A stretch of 64,000 bases of DNA, from assembly GCF_006345805.1 (NCBI RefSeq), contig NC_042998.1, positions 123,690,001 through 123,754,000 of the forward strand. Reading direction: 5' to 3'. The notes beneath the pieces are model-generated. The model was not told where the DNA came from, did no database searches, and saw only the letters and a program-made list of their open reading frames with translations. This DNA comes from Octopus sinensis (lineage: Eukaryota). Made by a program: the position numbers and the translations under genes. Positions 2,960-59,149 of the stretch are shown one piece after another (the first letter of the stretch is position 1; each line of letters begins with the position of its first letter).

Positions 2960-5754
2960 TATATATATGTATGTATGTATGTATGGATGTGCGTATATAT
3001 ATTTAAAGATAATAATAGCCATAACGAAAACGACAATAATGAATACTTCTAGAATCTCGTTGATAGCATAACACCTGTCAAATTGTTATAGTCTTCTGTT
3101 CGTCATGCACCTCAAAATAATTGTAAATGAACCTCTATAATAGACCTCCTAAATCAATAACATAGTATTATTATATACATAATTATTCCCATTTTGTAGT
3201 CCAATTTTCTGCGCTCTACATACTACTATTGGCAAATTACCTCGTCGTTCAATTTCCTGTTTCCCAAAAAATATAAGGGTTGCAATCATCCTTTCTAAAC
3301 TTAGAAAATGTAAACCGGCTCGTTAGAGTTAGTTTCCCTAGCATATTGGTATTCTTTATTTTTTAATCGACGATAATAATATATTAATGTTCTATGATTT
3401 ATAGTAGTAATATATATGAATAAATACTCGCTAGTGCATCAATTTGAAAAAAAAAAAAATTATAACATTTTTTGAAAAGGTTATATATCTTTACTTTAAA
3501 TTTTATATATGCACTCCCACTTATAGTACTGATTTGAAAATATGAATTTCTCATACCTTAATTTCTAAATATAGAATCATGTTCAAATAATTTGTATCTT
3601 TACAGTTAACTCTCTTAATTTTCCAATATTTATCAAAGATCCAAAAACGATACAAACGGTGATTTCGGTACATCTTCCCATTTCTATTTTCCAATTACAT
3701 TAACTCAGAAGCATATGATCCAGCCCTTAACTACAATGTATAACCAAATTGCTTTTTTTCTATTAAGGTATTTGATAATATCAGAGACAAAATCTCGGTT
3801 CCTTAGTCAGTAATGCACTTTTTTGTCTTTAATGTTAATAATTATCTTATATTATGCAACACTATGTTCATTATTTAGGTTTATAATGTATTGTTCTTGA
3901 GAATAAGCATATCCTCACGTGGGAAATTATAGTCAATAGATAAACAAGTTCAAGTATTTGGGGCGGGGCGTATTATTTTTCATAACAACAAACACAGCAT
4001 TTGAACAATCATGATGTAGCTCAGAAGTTACAAAAGGCATCAGAAATTGTTTGTTTAAAATATTTTGCAAGAACACACGATGAGCTATTAGATGTGTAAT
4101 AAGTTACTGGCGGATCCTGTTAATAATCTCGTCAATACGTACGAAGTATGTCAATTGAAAGAAACCGCGATGAAAATCTTTAAAACAAAAGTGAAAAAAC
4201 GTCAGTAACACCGTTACAACTGTAATCTCCAGTCACACAAAACTATATAGTTTAACATATCAAAACCTTTTCTCTTTATTTATTTCTATGCTTATTTATT
4301 ACCTTTCTGCTGGTTAAAAATGTCGATATGGAATACTAAGACGAGAGCGAGACTATGATCAGCTGCCAAATCCTTTTCAGGGATGGTTTAAAACTATATG
4401 CTGTAAACCATCAAAGTTTAAGAATATATCTTTAGCATTGTCAAACAATTTAGCAAAATATTAAAATGTTGTTTGCAATAAAGAAATGTAAATAGTTAAA
4501 CATAAGACGTTAAAAAGAAAATATGAGTTTGTACTCTATGAAGAGAGAATACACTCAAATAATTCAATATATACTTGATCACAAATGCGAAAGGTATCAG
4601 AACAAAATGATGACTATTTTGTCAAATTCAAGACAATTTTAAGAACTCATCGCAATGGCAAAAGAAATTTATTTGCGTCAGTTTCAAAGCATAGCTCTTT
4701 GCTAGTTTAATGGCGCGTTAAAAAGTAAATACAATCAACTAATACCTGATACGTATATAGAAGCATTACATATTACACAATAAGTTTGCCACAAACCTAT
4801 ACATCAAAGAGAGGTGATTCCTGAGTTTCAGGAAACATTACAAGGAAACTGTCATGCCACCAACTACTTTTTTAGGTCCCAAGAACACCTTTTATATAAA
4901 TTTCATGGTGGTCAGAAAAACATAGCTAAGTCATTATACTCTCAGCAATAAGATTCATCTAAGAAAAGAGTTATGTTTTCGAACCAATTAAAACCTGAAG
5001 ACGCATTTACTTGGTTAATATTTCGAACAAACACTCTTTTGTATTAAAACTTCGCATGACTTAGAACATAAATAAAAAAAGAAAATACGAAAATATTATA
5101 TAGTATCATGGCGATCAGATGATTATTAGCACACGATTAACTTGAAAATATTCCCAGAAAGAATGATGATAACAGCGTGTAACTTATCGATATAACAATA
5201 CCGAATAGTTTGCGGAAGCGAGGTGAAAATTAAATGAATTACGTCGATCTAATTGTAGAATTTAACACCTTATAGCCGTTAAGTTATGCGTCAATCATCC
5301 CATTTTTAATTAGCTGAAGGATAATAGACCACTACTGTGAGGATAAGGTTACACACATGTACTTTCCATGAAATCACAATAATAGTTTTAGCACACAATA
5401 ATGCATCATTCTTACACTGTATTTATTAAACATGAATGCATAACCGAAATTACAAGAATTTTATTTTTTTGCCTAGTGCATTGATTTTAAAAAAATATTT
5501 TGCAAGAAGATTCCATTTAATATTTACATATTTCGTTGTAATAATAATGAGAATTACGATAACAATGGTAATATCAAATAGAATAAAAAATATGTCTGGT
5601 TCTTTATATCTTAAGCTCAACCTTGCATTTCAACTTTTCGAGGTCGATAAAATAATGTACCAGTATAGTACTGGTGTCGATGATATCAGCTAAACCTTTC
5701 CCATCGAAAATTGCAAGTATTTTGAATAATAATGCTAATACTACAACTAGCAAT

Positions 5755-26229: not shown

Positions 26230-26533
26230 TAGCATAATGTTTCGTTTTTGGATTTGGTTTGCAAGATTCTTTATATGAGTTCGTGTGTTGAAGCATATTC
26301 TGTTGTGTCCGGGGACAGTCATTTCCTTTTTGTGCCTTATAATTTAACATACTCACCGGTAAAATTTCCACTTTTTTCTTATTTTTATTGAGAGTCAAGA
26401 CTATTGAAAAGTTTGCAACACGCAACGAAAATATTAGGAAAATAAGAAATAAGTGGACATTTTTACCGGTGAGTGTGTTACATTATAAGGCACAAAAAGA
26501 AAATAACTCTCCCCAGACACAACAGCATAATAT
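26230..26533. repeat. Fold-back (inverted) copy of a dispersed repeat, probably a PLE pseudo-LTR
   Basis: Arms 26294-26385 and 26439-26533 are imperfect reverse complements. The same unit recurs at 50590-50776. Confidence 0.8.
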
Positions 26534-40770: not shown

Positions 40771-41650
40771 CTAAGCTTTGTAGTATTTGAAAGTATTAAT
40801 AAGTTTGTGTATACAGGAAGGTTTGAACTCTGACCTTTTGTTAATAAGATTGTGTTTGTCTTTGAATTTCAAAATATTCTGGAGTTCTACACAACATAGT
40901 TGGCATCCTGCTCTATTATTTAAATAAGGTGCAGCTGATCCGATGATGGACCACCTGAGTTTGAAACCTATGCATTTGTCTTTTAATTCCCAATTTTTTT
41001 TTAGAAAGAGAGGTGCTGTTAGCTTCATGTCTGTGTTTCAGCGAGGACCGGTGGTTGTAGTATCTGAATTTCCAGGAGGTTGAGCAACCTATGTAGGTGA
41101 GTGTGTTAAACTGGGTACTCACCTCACATGAATATATTACGTTTTTCGCCCTACATGCGCCCCGTAGCGGACACTTGGATGCACATATGCAGTTGCAGTG
41201 CATTGCATTACTCGGTCGTGTGCTGTTAATCCCAGGCGGAGGTGTTGCATTACGTGTGGGGGCGTTGGTGTCCTCCTGGTTGTTGATGGGTGTGGTATTG
41301 CCTCTGTTGTGTTGGCGGGTGTTATTACTAACTGTTTGGGTAATATGGCTGCCAGTCTGATTATATTGTCTACTGTCTGGATGAGGGGGGTTCGGTTGGT
41401 CGCTATAGCTTGCTCTTGATCTAGCTGTTCTAATATTAATATAGTTATGTTTAGCTATGAGACAGCTCATGTTGGGCAGGGTAGAGTAGGAAATCCTAAT
41501 AGTTTTGTTGGAGAAGATACTTCTATACTTATGGGTGGGTGGAAAGTTGTTGGAAATGATAGAGAATATTCTCTTACATAATTTACCTCTAACTGCTAAG
41601 TTGTATGGTATGTTGAACCATATATATTTGCGTAATCTACTATTATCGCT
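40771..41650 (-). pseudogene. GIY-YIG endonuclease domain of a Naiad-type PLE, one frameshift in an A-run
   Basis: RKYIWFNIPY..NFP..IRISYSTLPNM; CNC..KCPLRGAC..NVIYSCEV..YIGCSTSWKFRYYNH; WELK..RWSII..PY..CQLC..E..LINKRSE..CIH then stop. The frameshift is near 41000. Confidence 0.9.
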
Positions 41651-42039
41651 TCTATTTCTCCTAATAGGATCTATATTGTTCTCGTCTGGAGGGTTACTAT
41701 TGTGTGCTATTCTATTAGTTCGCCTATTTCCTATACGTTCGCCTATTTCCTAATTTAAATTAGAATTATCGTTAGCATGAGTGCGGAGTTCGATTATAAT
41801 TGGGAGTTTTACGCCCGACGGACGTTCCTGGGTGGTCTACATATGATATTCTCTGGTTATACCCAGCACTATAGAGAGCCTGGTTGTAGTGTTGTGCGTG
41901 ATTATTGAAAATTTCTCTGTTAGAGGATAGTTTTGTAAGTCTGTCTGAGATGGCTTGGACCGTGGTGCTAATTATACAGGGTGGATGGTACCTTGACGAT
42001 GCGATGTTAGGTCGGCCAGTAAAGAGTGTCTGCCACGAT

Positions 42040-52134: not shown

Positions 52135-54411
52135 TATATGCATACATATAGGTACGTATAAGTGCGTGTGCATTTGTGAATGTATACACGGAACATATTT
52201 GTATCATATTTACTTATATTGCTCACATCTAAGCGCAAATAAACTAAGGCACTTGAATGTATGAATGTAATAAAATAGAAGAACGAAGTGATTTTCAAAT
52301 ATATTTTGATTCCTTTAGAAGATATGTCTGCTTACAATCCTATCTTTACTGTAAAAATCGCAAAATATGAAGCTTAATGAAACGAAGAAAATTACATATA
52401 TTTTCGCGTTATTCATGAAATCCAACTAATATTTGATGACACGACATTTTAGTTATATTGGTATAAGGTTTATTGAATATTTATACTACATCATTGGCTT
52501 TTGAATTTCGTAATATTGCAATTTATCAAAGAACAGGTTCTCTTTTTGAAAATTATATATCACCGTTATTCAGGATAGCATAAACTGACGAAAGAGCTCT
52601 TACGAAAAATAAGCTATATAAAAATATTGAAGGAGAAGGTGAGAGAGAAAAAGAGAGAGAGAGAGAGAGAGAGAGGGAGGTGGAGAGGGAGATTGAGAAA
52701 CTGAGTGACAGATACATACACACATATATAATTTACTGACAAAAACAACACATTCTAGTTCTTAAATTTATGCAAATATATGTGTATACGCGTATGCAAC
52801 TTATGTATATTGCCTATTACAATACAATACTGCACAATATTTGTAGCTATCCACTTCATACGATTTGGAACTGATATAATCAGAGTAACCCCTTTGAATA
52901 TCGTCATATATGTAAGTACACTGAAAGTAAATGCTACAGGATAACTACACCTCTGCTATTACACCAACAATATTTGGCCACTATTCTCTTTCCACTTTAA
53001 GATAGCGAAGACTGATTTCAGTGAGAGCTGGTTGCTATTTTAAGCATGTCCAGTGAACAAGTAGGTGTCTTTTGCTGACGAAATTAATGTAATAATTTCG
53101 GAAAGATGTGACATAAAAAATTCCAATACATTTTTGTTTTCTCAATGTTCAAATTCAATTTGCCGTATATAGCCTGTATAATCCAAGAATATATATTTTA
53201 TAAACAATATCGAACATATACACACAACGTATGCGTTTTGACAGTTCGTGGGCAGCTGAAATTTATACGCATGAGAGAAAACTTTCTTTTCATTACGCTT
53301 GGCGTAAAAACACCTAGATATCATATACAAGCGAGATAACTAAAGCCAGATCCCGTTCCAGGAGTGGTAGACAATGTTTCGTCATCTTTGTGACTTATCA
53401 ATACCACGTACCCAAATCGAGGACAGACGTAAGCTAAATCGCTCACTGTGACTATATGCTAAATGGTATGACAATAATGTGCTGGCATGTCCCAACGTTT
53501 CATACAACGGGGTGCTTCTCATTCATATATATTTCATGTACAGCAATGTATAAGACAGAACAACTATTATAAATTTCGGTTTTACAATGCTTTACAGTGG
53601 TGAAATACAAGCAGAAACGTTCTTCTATGTTACTGATGTGTGGAAAAGTAGGAAGGAGTCTCCCAAGACGCAATTTCACGGTTTGTTGACTGCTCTTCAG
53701 AGAAGACTACGGGGCTCTCGACTTCAACCAGCTAAACTTGTTGTGGATATCTTAATTTGTATGTTTATGCATTTAAATAAACAGTACCTATATTATGCAC
53801 AACACTGAAATCACCAAAAACTGAAAAACGTTAAAATATTATAAAGCCTCCCTATGGCGAAATAAATAATATTTTTATTTGTACCTTTGAATGTATTCTT
53901 TAGTTTTGAGATTATTTCTGTTAAAACAATGTAAACTTTAAAGTGATGGGTTATTGCCAACTTAATGTGGCAGTCCCAGGAAAGGGAAGAATGCTACTAC
54001 TATTTAGCCCCAAGAAACACAGTTCCTAGCTGGCTACGCACCACAAGTGTCCTGCGTCCTTAAGTTTCAAACAGGGGAGATAAGCAACTCCACCCAACAA
54101 AGCCAGCATCCAGATGTCGTGTTGTTGTTGTTGTTGTTAGTGGTGGTGGTGGTTTTTGTCGTCGTCGTCGTCGTGATGGTAATTTGTTGATAGTCAAAAT
54201 TATTTTTAGTTATTGAACTAATTTTTATATAGTGACCACCCTTGAACGCATGCGCATAACTGCAATTATGTAATACCTGTTCGCTTTTAAAAATAGAATT
54301 TGCTTATAAGGTTTAATTTAGCCTAAGATAAAAGGTTGCAAGCTGCCCGAGAAAGGATGTGCAGATATAGAGCACGGATCAGAGAGCAACAGAAAGATAA
54401 TATAATAAAAA

Positions 54412-54644
54412 TAAGGCAGCAAGCTGGCAGAACCGTTAGCACGCCGGGCGAAATACGTAGCTGTATTTTGTCTGCCATTACGTTCTGAGTTCAAAATCCG
54501 CCGAGGTCGACTTTGCCTTTCATCCTTTCAGGGTCGATAAATTAAGTACCAGTTACGCACTGGGGTCGATGTCATCGACTTAATCCGTTTGTCTGTCCTT
54601 GTTTGTCCCCGCTATGTTTAGCCCCTTGTGGGTAATAAAGAAAC
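54412..54644 (+). mobile_element. Full-length tRNA-derived SINE (Meta-domain-like core) with 17-bp TSD
   Basis: A/B-box-like motifs tggcagaaccgttag and gagttcaaaatcc; core gtcgactttgcctttcatcctttcagggtcgataaattaagtaccag. Perfect TSD agataatataataaaaa at 54395-54411 and 54645-54661. Confidence 0.9.
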
Positions 54645-55318
54645 AGATAATATAATAAAAAGAGAAAACAAGGAGGGCACTGACGGAGAAGGGAGAAAAT
54701 GAATATAGACGAACATCAAGTGTAATTAAAGAAAGCTAAGCTATGAATGCTATGAAAATTCAAATCATCCCTTCTTTCTTTAATAGGTTCTCCTGATGTT
54801 TTTCATTCCGTGGAATTTACATGCGCCCCACTAGTAACGTTAAATTCGTCAGAGAACACTGAACCAGAGTCCCTTTTAAACATATCAATGCAAACTGACT
54901 GTTCGACTCAATATCGTGACTAGTAAGATGGGTATCAGATTCAAAAGTGTAGTCATGCCAAGTGATTACATATAGGGCAATCTATTCATAGTTCATACAT
55001 ATAATTGACGCTTTTGGGCAGAAGAGTATTTTGATAACATGTGTTCAGATGTAAAATGCAAAAGAATACAGGTTTTCCAAAAATGGTTTAAACTGATAAA
55101 GGCAAAAGAAATGGATTTATGAAATAAATATATTATAGGACGCCACACTTGGTTGGTAATTATATGTTACCATTCCGTTTTGCTACTTTTTATATCTCGC
55201 TCAGAGATATAATATAGCATATTTCTCCTTTCTCGGGATCAGCAACTGTTTGTCGCTGGAAATAGCATATAGTATTTGGCGAGTGGAATGTGTTTTCATC
55301 ACTAGCGGGTGATTAACA

Positions 55319-57130
55319 CTGGGTGTTGATTGTGATTTCTTCTATGTGAGTTCGAATTATTGCACACTGATATTGTATGTTTCTTGTAGGTTTTCCCGCG
55401 CGGGTGAACCAAGATTCGTTGCATTATGTAAATTATTGAATTTCAGTTACTGTTTCGTCTGCACCTGTTTAATCCCCGTCTACGGGAAGAGGGAAGTAAG
55501 ATGGAGAATAGACAAAGTTACGCAGCGGCAACGACACGAGGAATAAATACCTACACCCTGGAAGTCCAGGAAATAGAAATTGACACAAGAAGGAAGAAGG
55601 TAGGAAGAAAATTTGTAAAAAAGGAGGGAACCAGTCCAAAGCTGACTCCCGCAGAAGAACTGATGAAAAGCATAGAGAAGAGGACGGTAGTATACAGAAC
55701 GTTGTCTACGTCCTCGAACAAGATAGAAGTAGCCCCAACAGAAGAAATAGAGGAATGCCTCGAAAATGTGAAAAAGTTGACCACGTCCTATACACATGGA
55801 AAGAAGTATGGCTCAGTGGAAATAAGGTTTGGCAATGAAGAAGATGCCATAAACCACTCCACGGAGCCGTTACGGACAACAAAATGGATACTACTTCCGA
55901 CGTACTGTGGCAAATGTACTGTGAGAGTTGGAAGAGTGTCCCGTCCCCCGCCCCGAAATCGAGAAAGAATGGCTGCTAGCAGCCATAATACACGATATAA
56001 AGGATGGAGTAGAGATCCTCAAGATAACAAGGACCCCAAAATCCAATTGGTGGGGATATAGCCTCGAAGTGACCATGCAGGTATCTTTGGAAGACTTGCA
56101 TAGTATAACGGAGGAAATAATGTTCCCGGAAGACAGCAGACTTCGAATAACAGTAGAAGGAAGACCAACAACATGCTTCCTATGCGGCAAAAGGGGGCAC
56201 ATGAAAGCAAGATGTCCCGAGAAGGAAAATGGAGAGGAGAAGAAAAGTGAAGAAAACAATACCGAAGAGGTAGTACTAATGAAAGAGACAGATACAGTAG
56301 AGGAACCCTTCTCAGTAGTAAACACGAGGAAGAGAAAGGAACGGGTGAAACCTCCCCCAGACAGTCAAAAAAGGCTAAAGGAGATTGTGATAGAAGAAAA
56401 TAGAAATGGATGCGAAGCACCAACAGAAGCAGTAGTAGAAGAAGGCACACAGGAAAAAACAGCATTACAACAGGGAGAAAAAGGAAGCGTTCATAAAATT
56501 GGTTATGATGTTTCTGCACGCCCGAACAGATCAGGACGGGAGCCGAAGCAAGCAGAAGTGAAAAGGAAGAGATATAAGTGGCATTTGGTCACATATTCCA
56601 AACGTAATAGAGAAATCGATTGTAAAATATAAATTTGTTATAAGAGTAAAGCTGCCGCCAGAAAAATACCAGGTATACACTAAAGGAATAGTCATATACA
56701 AAGAGAGATTCTTGAAAATGAGAGAAATGTATGGACGTTTCATAGACCCGCTGGGGGTTGAAGTCGAGTTTGTCGAGCTCCCGCCGGTCGTGGAATTAGA
56801 TTTGAAACCCTTTATGAACATTTAAAAAATAAGTATGTAAAATTTGTACTTCATAAAAAAAAACATGAGAAAAATAGACTGTTAAAATGTATAAAGAAAA
56901 AATGATACAAAAAAAAAGACTAAGAAAAAGAACAAGCTAAAAGGGAAAAACAAAACAAAAAAGACTGTAAAAACCTTTAATTGTAAAAAAGAAATCGCGA
57001 TTTCGTCTCGGAGCGGGACCGAGAAAACCGTCTCATATTCATTAGAAATTTAATTCATTGTAATTCATTCTTTCATATGTTTGTGTATGTCCCCTCTGTA
57101 TTCAGGCCTTGTGCCTATAATAAAGAGAAA
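55319..57130 (+). mobile_element. ORF1-only non-autonomous L1/Tx1-like retroelement with 15-bp TSD
   Basis: TSD agcgggtgattaaca (55304-55318) / agctggtgattaaca (57131-57145). Single ORF, A-rich 3' UTR, AATAAA at ~57119, no RT. Confidence 0.8.
55501..56825 (+). pseudogene. L1/Tx1-type ORF1 (gag-like nucleic-acid-binding protein, CCHC zinc knuckle), ~440 aa, two frameshifts
   Basis: MENRQSYAAAT start; RRM-like segment GSVEIRF..EEDA; CFLCGKRGHMKARC knuckle. ORFs 55501-, 55928- and a third frame ending ..LDLKPFMNI* join across frameshifts near 55940 and 56630. Confidence 0.8.
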
Positions 57131-57143
57131 AGCTGGTGATTAA

Positions 57144-57188
57144 CATATGCTGAGGACAGGTAACCACCCAGAAACTCGAGTCTGTGTG
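57144..57188 (+). ncRNA. Type I hammerhead ribozyme of the retrozyme-like unit
   Basis: catatg-CTGAGGA-caggtaaccaccca-GAAA-ctcgag-TC-tgtgtg. The core is canonical with a GUC triplet and palindromic stem III. The stem II mismatches fit CpG decay of cgggt/acccg. Confidence 0.8.
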
Positions 57189-59149
57189 TACCATGGAAGG
57201 CTAGAAATGAGAGCGATGACCTCCCCTCGCAAATACTAATCGGACACAGAATGTGTGTAGTGAGCCAGCTAGAAGAGATGTCTTCCAGAGGCTATAAACA
57301 TCAGTAGCACTGTCCTTTATGGGACGCTACACTTGGTTGGCAATTATATGTTAAATATATTTTATAGTATATCTTACTCTATAACAGGTATAAAATGTAC
57401 CACTAGGATTTGGAACATGAAACTATTCTGAAATTTGAGTTTGAATGAATTAACAAAGAAATATATTAAGAGACGAAGGAATAATTCCTAAACTGAAAGA
57501 TAAAACAGTTTATTCATAGTTTCAAATATATTAAGTCTATATTCATTTAAATGACATTTTGTCTTAAAACATAACATTTTATGAAAGCATTTAATTTAAT
57601 TTCTCATATCCCTCTGGCATAAACCTTAGTCCACCTCATATTTAAAGGACAAAATAACGTTTTCCACAAAAGTGTCTCAGTTTTAGTAATCTAACATATG
57701 TGAAAAGTCATGTCAAATTTTTAAAAAGTTCAATAAAATGAAAATGCACAAATACACATAATGTATAATAGTATAAGTATTTATATCTTAAATGTTATTT
57801 TTATCGATTTCCATCATTAAAATAAAGAAAAAACTTGCAATAAATTAATTGTTTATTCTAACAATAAAATACATACACATATAATACATATAATGTAGAC
57901 CTGATAATCTGTTAATCTTGAACTTTATGGTATTCGTGATGCATGCAATGAATCTAGATGTGAAAGACGCTTATGTTAGAATGTAATGGGATACAGGTGT
58001 TTATCTCTCTTTTCGATGTGTATATGGATATAAACTTCTTCCAATAAGTTTTGACTCTACACTAAGAAACAAATGATAATGAAATGTTCAAGTGGAAGTA
58101 CAAACTATTGTATTGTGTTATTGCTATGATGTCCTTGCAGCATACTTTTCATGTAAAAAAACAACTCCCACACAGAGATTAGTGGAGTGGGGGTGGGGCA
58201 GTTAGATTATTAGGTATTTTATAAGATTTATTACTGGTCGCTTTTAGCTACGAATGACGACATAATATAAGAAATAAACATTGCCTTTACTACCGATATA
58301 ACAGCAACATGTTACCAAAATATGAACACAGCTACTCATCCATATTTATATAGAGAGATATATGTTTATATATATATGTATGTATATAGGTGTAGGTATT
58401 TGTGTAAGGAGAGAGAACAAAAGAGGTAAATTTGTGTAAAGGGCGAGCGGAACAGGCAGATAAAGAGACAAGAATAATATGATGCATTAATAAGTGGCAA
58501 TTCTGAATTTGTTTAACTAATTAAAAATAAATAATTAGAAAGAATTTTGTTCATAACGAAATCCCTTTTACTTTATAAAGATATGCTGTGTTGTCATTCT
58601 TTTCGAAGAGAGTAATTATTCGAGAAGTGTAAGAGTTTCAAATATTTCTCGAAGAAAACTAATTGATTTGCATCTCCTAAAACCTGTGCAGCTTGGGATT
58701 CAGTTTCACTGAAAGTATGCCGGCCAGAACTAAGAAGTGGGTGTTGATACCGCAAGTCATTTTTTTCTATCCCTCTGACAATTCTACCAATCGATTAATT
58801 AGGACTGCTACTTCATTTATAAACATCTAAACTATGGAAAGCTAAAATGACATCTTCCAGATTTGAAATTAGAGACCAGAGCGCCCGATCGTATATAACT
58901 AAGTAGCATTCAGACATATAAATATACATGGCATTCATACGTACATACATAAATTATGCCGTCGAATTCAGTTACGTCGACATAAAGGGACAATTCATCT
59001 TTCTGTAATGAATACAACCCTAAGAACATTCGCCATTGCTACATGCAGAGAAAAATATAAGAAACATATTGGCCATCTTCTTTGGAAAAAAGTGAAGCAC
59101 TTTTTATAGAAGATTATAGCGGAGAAAACTAAATGGAATTCAACAGCTG

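Follow-up and report, generated by a model that had tools for sequence, protein, structure and literature searches.

A decayed 357-nt hammerhead repeat in the Octopus sinensis genome and the gag-only element inserted in it

Metazoan non-LTR retrozymes have units of 350-390 bp in mussel, 220-240 bp in coral and 330/350 bp in axolotl (PMC7229834). Which enzyme mobilizes them, and whether a circle is the template, are stated to be open questions (PMC7229834, 10.64898/2026.07.22.740005). Within a 64,000-nt window of an O. sinensis contig (the whole stretch of DNA that was analyzed), a hammerhead repeat interrupted by a longer insert occupies positions 55138..57353; all features given here are on the + strand. 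Like metazoan retrozymes, the octopus unit has a length (357 nt) within the 150-450 bp of the class, a low GC content (45%) and no ORF, carries a type I hammerhead with a 4-pair stem II and a short stem III with a palindromic loop, and is predicted to form a self-paired circle; it also has head-to-tail copies and shares its genome with Penelope-like elements (PLEs). Unlike them, it occurs mostly as dispersed copies of 0.5-1.7 turns, with PLE-type inversions instead of arrays, and its stem II has C.A at the base, where axolotl HHR_Amex2 has U.U. The family is apparently extinct in this genome, and it is known here from sequence and predicted fold.

The second relevant comparison is with EN+ PLEs and their pLTRs (PMC8557442, PMC3846280, PMC4209133; 10.64898/2026.07.22.740005), with which the octopus copies share 5' truncation, partial tandems, an inverted 5' copy, a tail at one end and a bias toward microsatellites. 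In contrast to EN+ PLEs, the unit has no attached RT-GIY-YIG ORF, and its tail measures about 50 nt rather than 30-40. It differs from pLTRs in having a canonical-type hammerhead instead of the minimal motif (PMC4209133).

The 357-nt unit and its hammerhead

The left part of the unit (c1-c181 in unit positions) lies at 55138..55318, with a 5' end that may reach 55134, and the right part (c182-c357) lies at 57146..57321. The start of a second turn follows (c1-c32, 57322..57353) and ends at one of the two preferred 3' ends of the family. A reading made from the sequence only had proposed that the same 32-mer begins and ends the repeat; indeed, the first copy of this overlap (c1-c32, 55138-55169) and the second (57322-57353) are identical at 30 of 32 places, and the match extends to 37 nt at 92%. 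The proposed 357-nt period was likewise borne out, as excision of the insert and one copy of its target-site duplication left 181 + 208 = 389 nt, or 357 + 32 nt. The alternative that the 32-mer is an unrelated target duplication was not supported, the overlap being the start of a second turn of the unit. Its length is set by the chance position of a 5' truncation, which lies 1.09 turns away from one of the preferred 3' ends, and is not a fixed terminal feature; at 1.09 units, the window copy would count as a monomer. A 10-nt repeat around this copy (55125-55134 / 57352-57361) was rejected as a target duplication, because flank repeats of at least 8 nt occur in 8 of 51 non-inverted copies, compared with 14.5% for mismatched pairs.

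A genome search of the kind that the sequence-only reading had suggested, run with the two unit halves, gave 2033 and 684 first-look candidates. The 357-nt repeat is an old multicopy family with at least four subfamilies (one of them, D, built from 5 loci), whose consensuses are 356-358 nt long, 74-90% alike and 45% GC; at this locus, the ORFs of at least 60 amino acids lie inside the insert. No copy is more than 95.7% identical to its own consensus, so no active source is in hand. Together, the copy family and the overlap arithmetic support the earlier idea of a 357-nt, noncoding, retrozyme-like hammerhead unit present in slightly more than one turn. The further idea that this was an unrecognized cephalopod retrozyme family holds for the family and not for the class, which has already been described, in a mollusc as well (PMC7229834). 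Taken by itself, the retrozyme adds a new member to an established class.

The hammerhead motif spans 57136..57194, with the core elements CTGAGGA at 57150-57156, GAAA at 57171-57174 and GTC at 57180-57182. Stem II is at 57158-57169, and a two-pair stem III is closed by a palindromic loop (57176-57179), with cleavage predicted after 57182. All four subfamily consensuses have the core, a stem I of 7+5 pairs, a 4-pair stem II, a 2-pair stem III and the palindromic loop. The motif had been described as a canonical type I hammerhead. That description fits the core elements, which are all there, but not the base of stem II, which is C.A rather than G-C in the four subfamilies. It fits the window copy less well, since nine changes from the consensus fall between c170 and c242. 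One of these, a G>A at 57158, disrupts a pair of stem II, and three others are C>T changes in stem I. Left with a single, weakened hammerhead, this copy is probably dead and would be unable by itself to release unit-length RNA. The C.A deviation falls at positions 10.1/11.1.

A 33-place core pattern had 552 exact matches in the genome, compared with 0 for the reversed pattern used as a control; thus, the motif is not a product of chance. In an Rfam scan of the window (E<=1), none of the 143 matches was a hammerhead; they were microsatellites matching miRNA models.

Folding the unit as a circle, which had been put forward as a check, predicted a stable self-paired structure for the consensuses (z of -5.2 to -6.5) and for the window unit (z of -3.2). 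The reverse strand of the subfamily A consensus folds equally well (z of -6.1), so that folding does not discriminate between the strands. Two of the three pairings that had been noted across the insert, c133-146 with c262-274 and c155-170 with c235-250, recur in the fold predicted for the window unit and in that of the family consensus, whereas the third, ctggaa with ttccag, is absent from both folds and depends on a base private to the window copy. In the window, the 5' arm of the predicted rod (c133-c170) is at 55270..55307, and its partner is at 57199-57238. When 94 pairs from subfamily A were followed in subfamilies B to D, 89% of 280 cells were still paired, compared with 32-46% for slid partners, and changes on both sides occurred at 11 of the 94 pairs, compared with 1-7 for slid partners. 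Counting against the fold, 13 of the 94 pairs change by breaking alone. Loop III is palindromic in 47 of 74 cores and takes three forms there (TCGA in 33, CCGG in 9 and TGCA in 5), which is the expectation for dimeric hammerheads (PMC4209133). The motif and the fold are conserved, and the compensatory changes suggest that the hammerhead and rod-like fold have been under selection.

Insertion anatomy and the source of the copies

We surveyed 124 distinct loci (with 191 3' ends and as many 5' ends) other than the window copy, chosen by best match to the queries and hence biased toward copies that are long and extend across both junction and core. Copies start at scattered positions and run head to tail across the unit junction, for about five turns at most. 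In 67 of the 124 loci the longest segment is more than one unit long, and in 14 it spans two cleavage sites. Segments passed through the cleavage site 167 times, versus 5 segments that start within c212-226, and no stop hot spot was seen there in this survey. Most 3' ends (150/191) are concentrated at two sites adjoining (TA)n, and a microsatellite follows 86 of these 150, compared with a background of 10%. A head-to-head 5' inversion is present in 63 of the 124 loci. Among 65 inverted pairs, 32 combine one long and one short end, none have ends alike and 33 include an unclassed end, so that the tail is one-sided in 32 of 32 classifiable inversions, as is known for PLEs (PMC8557442, PMC3846280). 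Two loci, L091 and L092, were considered as a 1.4-kb longer element and set aside as a local duplication that is 99% identical over 263 nt.

GIY-YIG-bearing PLEs are present in the genome (147 matches), and at one locus, L177, a PLE 3' UTR is joined directly to the unit. The case for a PLE partner is built from the insertion anatomy and this one junction, which is also explicable by insertion with deletion. By anatomy, the PLE signatures seen on this periodic unit, which has no ORF, tie the spread of retrozymes to PLE machinery.

On balance, we think it probable that the 389-nt remnant is a decayed retrozyme copy, likely produced by way of multimers, circles and a Penelope-type reverse transcriptase and then interrupted by a site-preferring gag-only element. 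The noncoding repeat was likely transcribed as multimers, which paired hammerheads would have cut into monomers that would close into circles. A Penelope-type enzyme likely copied the RNA back into TA-rich DNA. Reverse transcription may have been primed at either of two AT-rich sites (c20-40 or c68-97) and run round the template to a random stop, which for the window copy would have come after 1.09 turns. The gag-only element would have been inserted later by a LINE-type enzyme, leaving a 15-nt duplication. As modeled, with cleavage and circle both predicted, the 357-nt family works like a metazoan non-LTR retrozyme.

A possible but doubtful alternative is that the same nonautonomous, PLE-mobilized family was copied with no circle, from an uncleaved linear multimer (by read-through of a tandem locus) or through repeated PLE template jumps. 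PLE partial tandems form without a demonstrated circle, and a nonautonomous head-to-tail derivative, MRC1, exists (PMC8557442); moreover, cleavage failed in 8 of 9 dimers assayed from Xenopus (10.64898/2026.07.22.740005). As evidence of a periodic template, turns that overlap in the same insertion had non-CpG variants in common at 47 of 3714 sites (permutation mean, 0.0051; maximum, 0.0091; 5000 permutations) in a tally that omits copies below 86% and loci L117 and L159, L117 alone having supplied 21 of 73 shared variants in an earlier tally. These shared variants and the passage through the cleavage site fit a linear multimer equally, and all of the template evidence is also compatible with a homogeneous one. 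In addition, c161-180, a bin close to a possible start site, contains 29 of the 191 5' ends, although its count is inflated by the queries and the gag inserts. Against a linear multimer, just one array of more than two units was found in the 124 loci; it has about 4.9 units with star-like divergence among them and, at 86%, is more diverged than typical copies. No recurring difference between first and second turns stood out (the highest was 5 cases), and the hammerhead and end-joining rod are conserved in four subfamilies. Four sequencing runs, their RNA nature guessed, each gave 43-111 contigs that were mostly less than 95% alike, none spanning the stretch; joints in these contigs that go back 356 are what the tandem reference itself yields.

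It is very unlikely that the unit is instead a plain pLTR belonging to an autonomous PLE, with the ORF-bearing copies overlooked. In favor of this reading, the copies insert in the manner of PLEs, a relationship between retrozymes and pLTRs is known in Xenopus (10.64898/2026.07.22.740005), and six loci have PLE coding sequence no more than 1.5 kb from a unit. However, a microsatellite separates the two at five of these six, including L096 and L077, which had been considered as ORF-bearing parents and were rejected for that reason. What lies upstream of units is another unit, an inversion, the tail of a gag element or SINE, or unrelated DNA. The unit is present in 1 of 30 GIY-YIG loci, in which a strict hammerhead scan found none, and the PLEs examined carry their own 3' UTRs. 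Constant attachment to a PLE ORF, raised earlier as the mark of a pLTR, thus does not describe these copies, which yielded the one direct junction at L177 and no rule of RT plus GIY-YIG beside the unit. Nor is the hammerhead of the minimal kind, its stem I being long and stem III present.

The gag-only insert and its target

The insert had been treated as incidental; it proved to be a target-specific non-LTR element and the more novel part of the locus. It covers 1812 bp (55319..57130) and has an A-rich end with AATAAA at 57119-57124. A broken ORF1-like gene (55432..56825) runs through three overlapping frames (55432-56061, 55925-56632 and 56562-56825), with a zinc knuckle near 56171-56221 (PF00098, 20.6 bits against a cutoff of 20.8). 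The target-site duplication has its left copy at 55304..55318, in the 5' arm of stem I (c167-c181), and its right copy at 57131..57145, where it rebuilds that arm before the core; the two agree at 14 of 15 places. Including the window copy, 37 of 45 distinct insert 3' ends lie at this 15-nt target (match at 11 or more places; null, 0.5%), which is hit across subfamilies; in a wider tail-sharing group the count is 11 of 24. Target specificity is recognized when the same repeat stands in >20% of flanks (PMC4494074), a share that is exceeded here. Duplications were found at 11 of 12 insert copies with an intact 5' end, along with A-rich 3' ends and tandem copies around the duplication, and related gag families stack at the same site.

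The preference for one site in another repeat, the ~15-nt duplications and the tandem copies sandwiching a duplication resemble target-specific Tx1-clade elements and SINEU-3 (PMC4494074). Like the ORF1-only HAL1 (PMC5753468), the insert codes for an ORF1-like CCHC protein alone, and its 1.8-kb copies have zf-CCHC and lack RT. Unlike Tx1-type elements, its target is a hammerhead repeat rather than a DNA transposon, snRNA gene, LTR element or microsatellite. Other hammerhead families also have insert copies a short way upstream, in three cases, with a similar spacing to the core and an unrelated target sequence.

That the true element is a 2184-bp unit of gag ORF plus hammerhead repeat, with the 357-nt form its deletion derivative, is largely refuted and highly improbable: 12 of the best 14 other insert copies are flanked by the unit on at least one side, and some 5'-truncated inserts without a left unit half could mean comobilization, but the insert has its own 15-nt duplications and AATAAA/A-rich ends and forms insert-duplication-insert stacks, one unit (L265) contains three different gag families, the insert is 0.85-0.87 identical whichever subfamily flanks it, and the element is also present, with a duplication, in a hammerhead family unrelated to this one and in DNA that has no hammerhead (L170 and L211).

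Judged from sequence, the insert is apparently a parasite aimed at hammerhead repeats. We found no printed report of elements targeting this class, in which several gag-only families that have diverged from each other strike a single position here. Should insertion be guided by position or structure rather than by sequence, it would follow a targeting rule that is new among non-LTR elements. More speculatively, and with considerable doubt, these gag-only retroelements may be specialized on hammerhead repeats by position instead of sequence, as ribozyme-assisted hyperparasites of a circular-RNA retroelement. Such an element would insert some 17-22 nt before the catalytic core, immediately past the start site of the repeat, so that the host repeat would supply its promoter and the duplication would rebuild stem I. 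An intact hammerhead could then trim read-through RNA to a ~50-nt target-matching 3' end that would steer the next insertion.

No ORF2-bearing relative of the insert was found in the loci read. One candidate for an autonomous gag-plus-RT parent, L264, was rejected, as the RT beside its gag belongs to a PLE inserted with an inverted end. With an intact gag relative as the query, a search of proteins yielded 1 match among 2009 candidates, and look-alikes of the insert protein in the Atlas are CCHC and ZCCHC3-type RNA-binding clusters. A TATA-like motif read by eye at 55268..55274, ~35 nt upstream of the insertion site, may be a promoter. None was obvious by eye at three non-hammerhead sites with clear duplications (L272, L278 and L283). 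The motif is clearer in subfamilies C and D.

The 357-nt hammerhead unit and its family

The sequence-only reading had proposed a retrozyme-like unit interrupted by an insertion, and its 357-nt hammerhead unit is real. As that reading had it, the terminal 32-mers at 55138 and 57322 were identical at 30 of 32 positions, and removal of the insert left 389 nt with a period of 357. When the unit is numbered c1-c357 from 55138, the insert follows c181, cleavage is predicted at c218 (57182), and the 32-nt overlap is simply 1.09 turns of the unit, ending at c32. A 15-nt duplication (55304-55318 and 57131-57145, 14/15 identical) brackets the insert. No hammerhead appeared among the Rfam matches in the window. 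We infer that the window copy, 92% identical to subfamily A, is dead, a fossil, because it has lost a stem II pair, has three G.U pairs in place of G-C in stem I, and contains a single hammerhead.

A first look at the source genome gave 2033 and 684 candidates for the two unit halves, 40 of which were scored per half. A 33-place core pattern had 552 exact matches, versus 0 with the reversed control. Majority sequences from the fetched loci define four subfamilies, A to D (357, 358, 356, and 357 nt; D built from 5 loci), that are 74-90% mutually alike. Median identity of copies to their own consensus was 88-91%, with a maximum of 95.7%; the family therefore looks extinct in this genome among the copies sampled.

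The consensuses carry a type I hammerhead motif with a long, bulged stem I extended by a rod (c133-185/c219-274), four pairs in stem II, whose base is C.A in all four, and two pairs in stem III. Folded as circles, they scored z values of -6.2, -6.5, -5.2, and -5.4 against shuffles (window unit, -3.2; reverse strand of consensus A, -6.1). When 94 pairs were defined on A alone, 89% of 280 cells paired in B to D, with 11 of A's pairs showing two-sided changes, 11 one-sided changes, and 13 nothing but breaks; in the slid-partner control, 32-46% of cells paired, with 1-7 two-sided changes. Two of three pairings proposed earlier across the insert recur in the predicted fold, and the third is private to the window copy. 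The free core position in 74 distinct cores from fetched loci was T in 38, G in 31, C in 4, and A in 1, the other positions being fixed by the search pattern, so that their constancy is no evidence. Loop III was palindromic (TCGA, CCGG, or TGCA) in 47 of the 74; a passage of PMC4209133 gives short stems with palindromic loops as a mark of dimer-working hammerheads.

Two further hammerhead repeat families were seen in comparison loci, one in L267 and L286 (downstream of 1519, element orientation) and one at L254:2698-2790. L267 and L286 are alike and have motifs in common with the 357-nt unit; L267 terminates in (TA)n.

Insertion anatomy and the template of the unit

We analyzed insertion anatomy in 124 distinct loci from the 150 given, leaving out the window. 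Segment 3' ends fell at c20-40 or c68-97 in 150 of 191 cases, and a microsatellite followed 86 of these 150 (background, 10%); 5' ends were scattered round the unit. Head-to-head inversions occurred in 63 of the 124 loci. The 65 inverted pairs comprised 32 with one short and one long end, 0 with two alike, and 33 with an unclassed end. These inversions match the anatomy that portions of PMC8557442 and PMC3846280 describe for PLEs (Penelope-like elements), in which a 5'-truncated copy is inverted and only one end bears a tail. Unit copies showed no excess of target duplications.

The longest segment exceeded one unit in 67/124 loci and spanned two cleavage sites in 14, both counts being inflated by query choice. 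Because only 5 segments started within c212-226, versus 167 passages, the template, judged from sequence, was not a cut linear monomer. At L159:3791-5768, on C9, an array of ~4.9 units is accompanied by an inverted 5' piece and has a 120-nt gap after its first unit. Its units are 18-27% apart mutually and 11-16% from the consensus, with a few variants in common, and the array looks as if it came from one long copying event. Across insertions, overlapping turns shared variants within an insertion at 2.5 times the between-insertion rate (47/3714 sites; reached in 0/5000 permutations), a rate equal to that of inverted pieces.

The periodic family, the conserved motif, the PLE-type ends, and the site-preferring insert are observations made here. 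For the unit's cycle, we favor, with some confidence, one modelled on a proposal in the sections of PMC7229834 concerned. Two-hammerhead loci would yield multimeric RNA, which dimeric cleavage would cut to monomers; the rod would hold their ends together, ligation would close them into circles, and the circle would be copied by a PLE enzyme using nicked (TA)n as its priming site. A homogeneous linear multimer is an unlikely though serious template in place of the circle: it predicts the insertion anatomy and the variants shared within insertions equally well, and the ends, passages, array, and shared variants expected of a circle are expected of it too.

GIY-YIG PLEs are numerous in the genome (147 matches), with a CX4CX2C linker resembling the Neptune linker in the relevant part of PMC8557442. 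We rejected the unit as an ordinary pLTR (PLE terminal repeat), which the sequence-only reading had expected to be always attached to a PLE ORF: it was present in 1 of 30 GIY-YIG loci, and at five of the six loci with PLE protein matches near it, a microsatellite lay between the two. On the minus strand of L177 (1296-2350), the 3' UTR of a PLE, 86% alike to its counterpart in L176, continues into the unit at c126-129 with no microsatellite between. This one case is no more than a lead: either the enzyme of that PLE may have switched templates, or an insertion may have been accompanied by a deletion; a template switch would name the PLE family mobilising the unit.

By eye, PLE 3' UTRs contain a minimal-hammerhead-like motif (hairpin, GAAA, palindromic 4-mer) with U for the first core C, at L077:~2970-3010, L176:~1200-1235, and L264:~3370-3410 (minus). 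L264:4096-6017 (minus) also holds a 571-aa PLE RT frame and a GIY-YIG frame, which adjoin a truncated gag element whose match has an identical score at three places in the genome.

Gag-only elements and their target in the unit

The insert (55319-57130, ~1.8 kb) belongs to a family separate from the unit, with 416 candidates and near-full-length copies 75-88% alike. It has a broken ORF1-like gene with a zinc knuckle, AATAAA, and an A-rich end. The unit adjoins 12 of the 14 other best insert copies. The c167-181 target (at least 11 of 15 places) followed 37 of 45 distinct insert 3' ends, collected by insert sequence except for two from unit loci, versus 0.5% of 3000 positions drawn at random; the 37 do not count as 37 independent events, since the unit may have taken some copies with it after they were inserted. 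Of the 12 copies whose 5' end was intact, 11 had the duplication. Identity between inserts was 0.85-0.87 regardless of A, B, or C host. Several loci contain insert-duplication-insert stacks, and in L265 a single subfamily C unit houses three gag elements whose knuckle regions are 45-75% alike.

A 19-nt tail common to the gag group had 127 matches (control, 0). Among the first 24, 11 passed the target test (five counted before, window included), another sat in the target, its duplication decayed, two lay 17-18 nt upstream of a distant hammerhead family's core, and 10 lay elsewhere. The L170 insert sits 22 nt upstream of a third hammerhead family's core; the sequence of its 14-15-nt duplication is unrelated. 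Together with the 37 ends, these placements point to a preference that is strong for the insert family, looser for the wider gag group, and possibly positional. LINE-type target-primed insertion would have placed the insert, and the duplication would rebuild stem I, leaving the downstream hammerhead whole. The loci examined held no ORF2-bearing partner, and the sole protein match of a gag relative was an Octopus bimaculoides entry, which fits the cephalopod origin supposed by the sequence-only reading.

Non-LTR retrozymes have been described before, among them mussel units of 350-390 bp (PMC7229834, in part), and the available text of a 2026 preprint traces them back to PLE pLTRs (10.64898/2026.07.22.740005). 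Portions of two further papers likewise describe ORF1-only HAL1 elements (PMC5753468) and Tx1-clade elements with other repeats as their targets, stacked around duplications (PMC4494074). A term search of the accessible text of an octopus repeat annotation (PMC13282606) returned neither ribozymes nor retrozymes, which PMC10886601 touches on only in passing. Searches of mainly open literature listed no octopus retrozyme and no elements targeting hammerhead repeats; Repbase, Dfam, or the supplements of PMC7229834 and the preprint may list either family. The 357-nt retrozyme is a new addition to a known class, and novelty rests on the gag-only elements that target hammerhead repeats.

Other elements at the target and in the window

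Other sequences, some common between loci, start directly after the c167-181 target in L009, L024, L050, L205, L207, L209, and L222; these putative further families occupy the same site. More distant gag-only relatives in L247, L260, and L262 lie, by eye, in LTR-like sequence ~25-30 nt after a TATA-like motif, a position that suggests start-site targeting; two of the three have ~15-nt duplications. Elsewhere in the window are a 277-aa open frame lacking any Pfam match (40916-41749, minus) and a long imperfect inverted repeat (26298-26527), probably a MITE, that matches the MIR2646 model at E 9.7e-14, far below its gathering score. At 54388-54661, a pair of 24-nt direct repeats (88%) flanks a SINE-like repeat whose tail is like the 3' end of the insert; copies similar to this repeat break units in L035 and L045.
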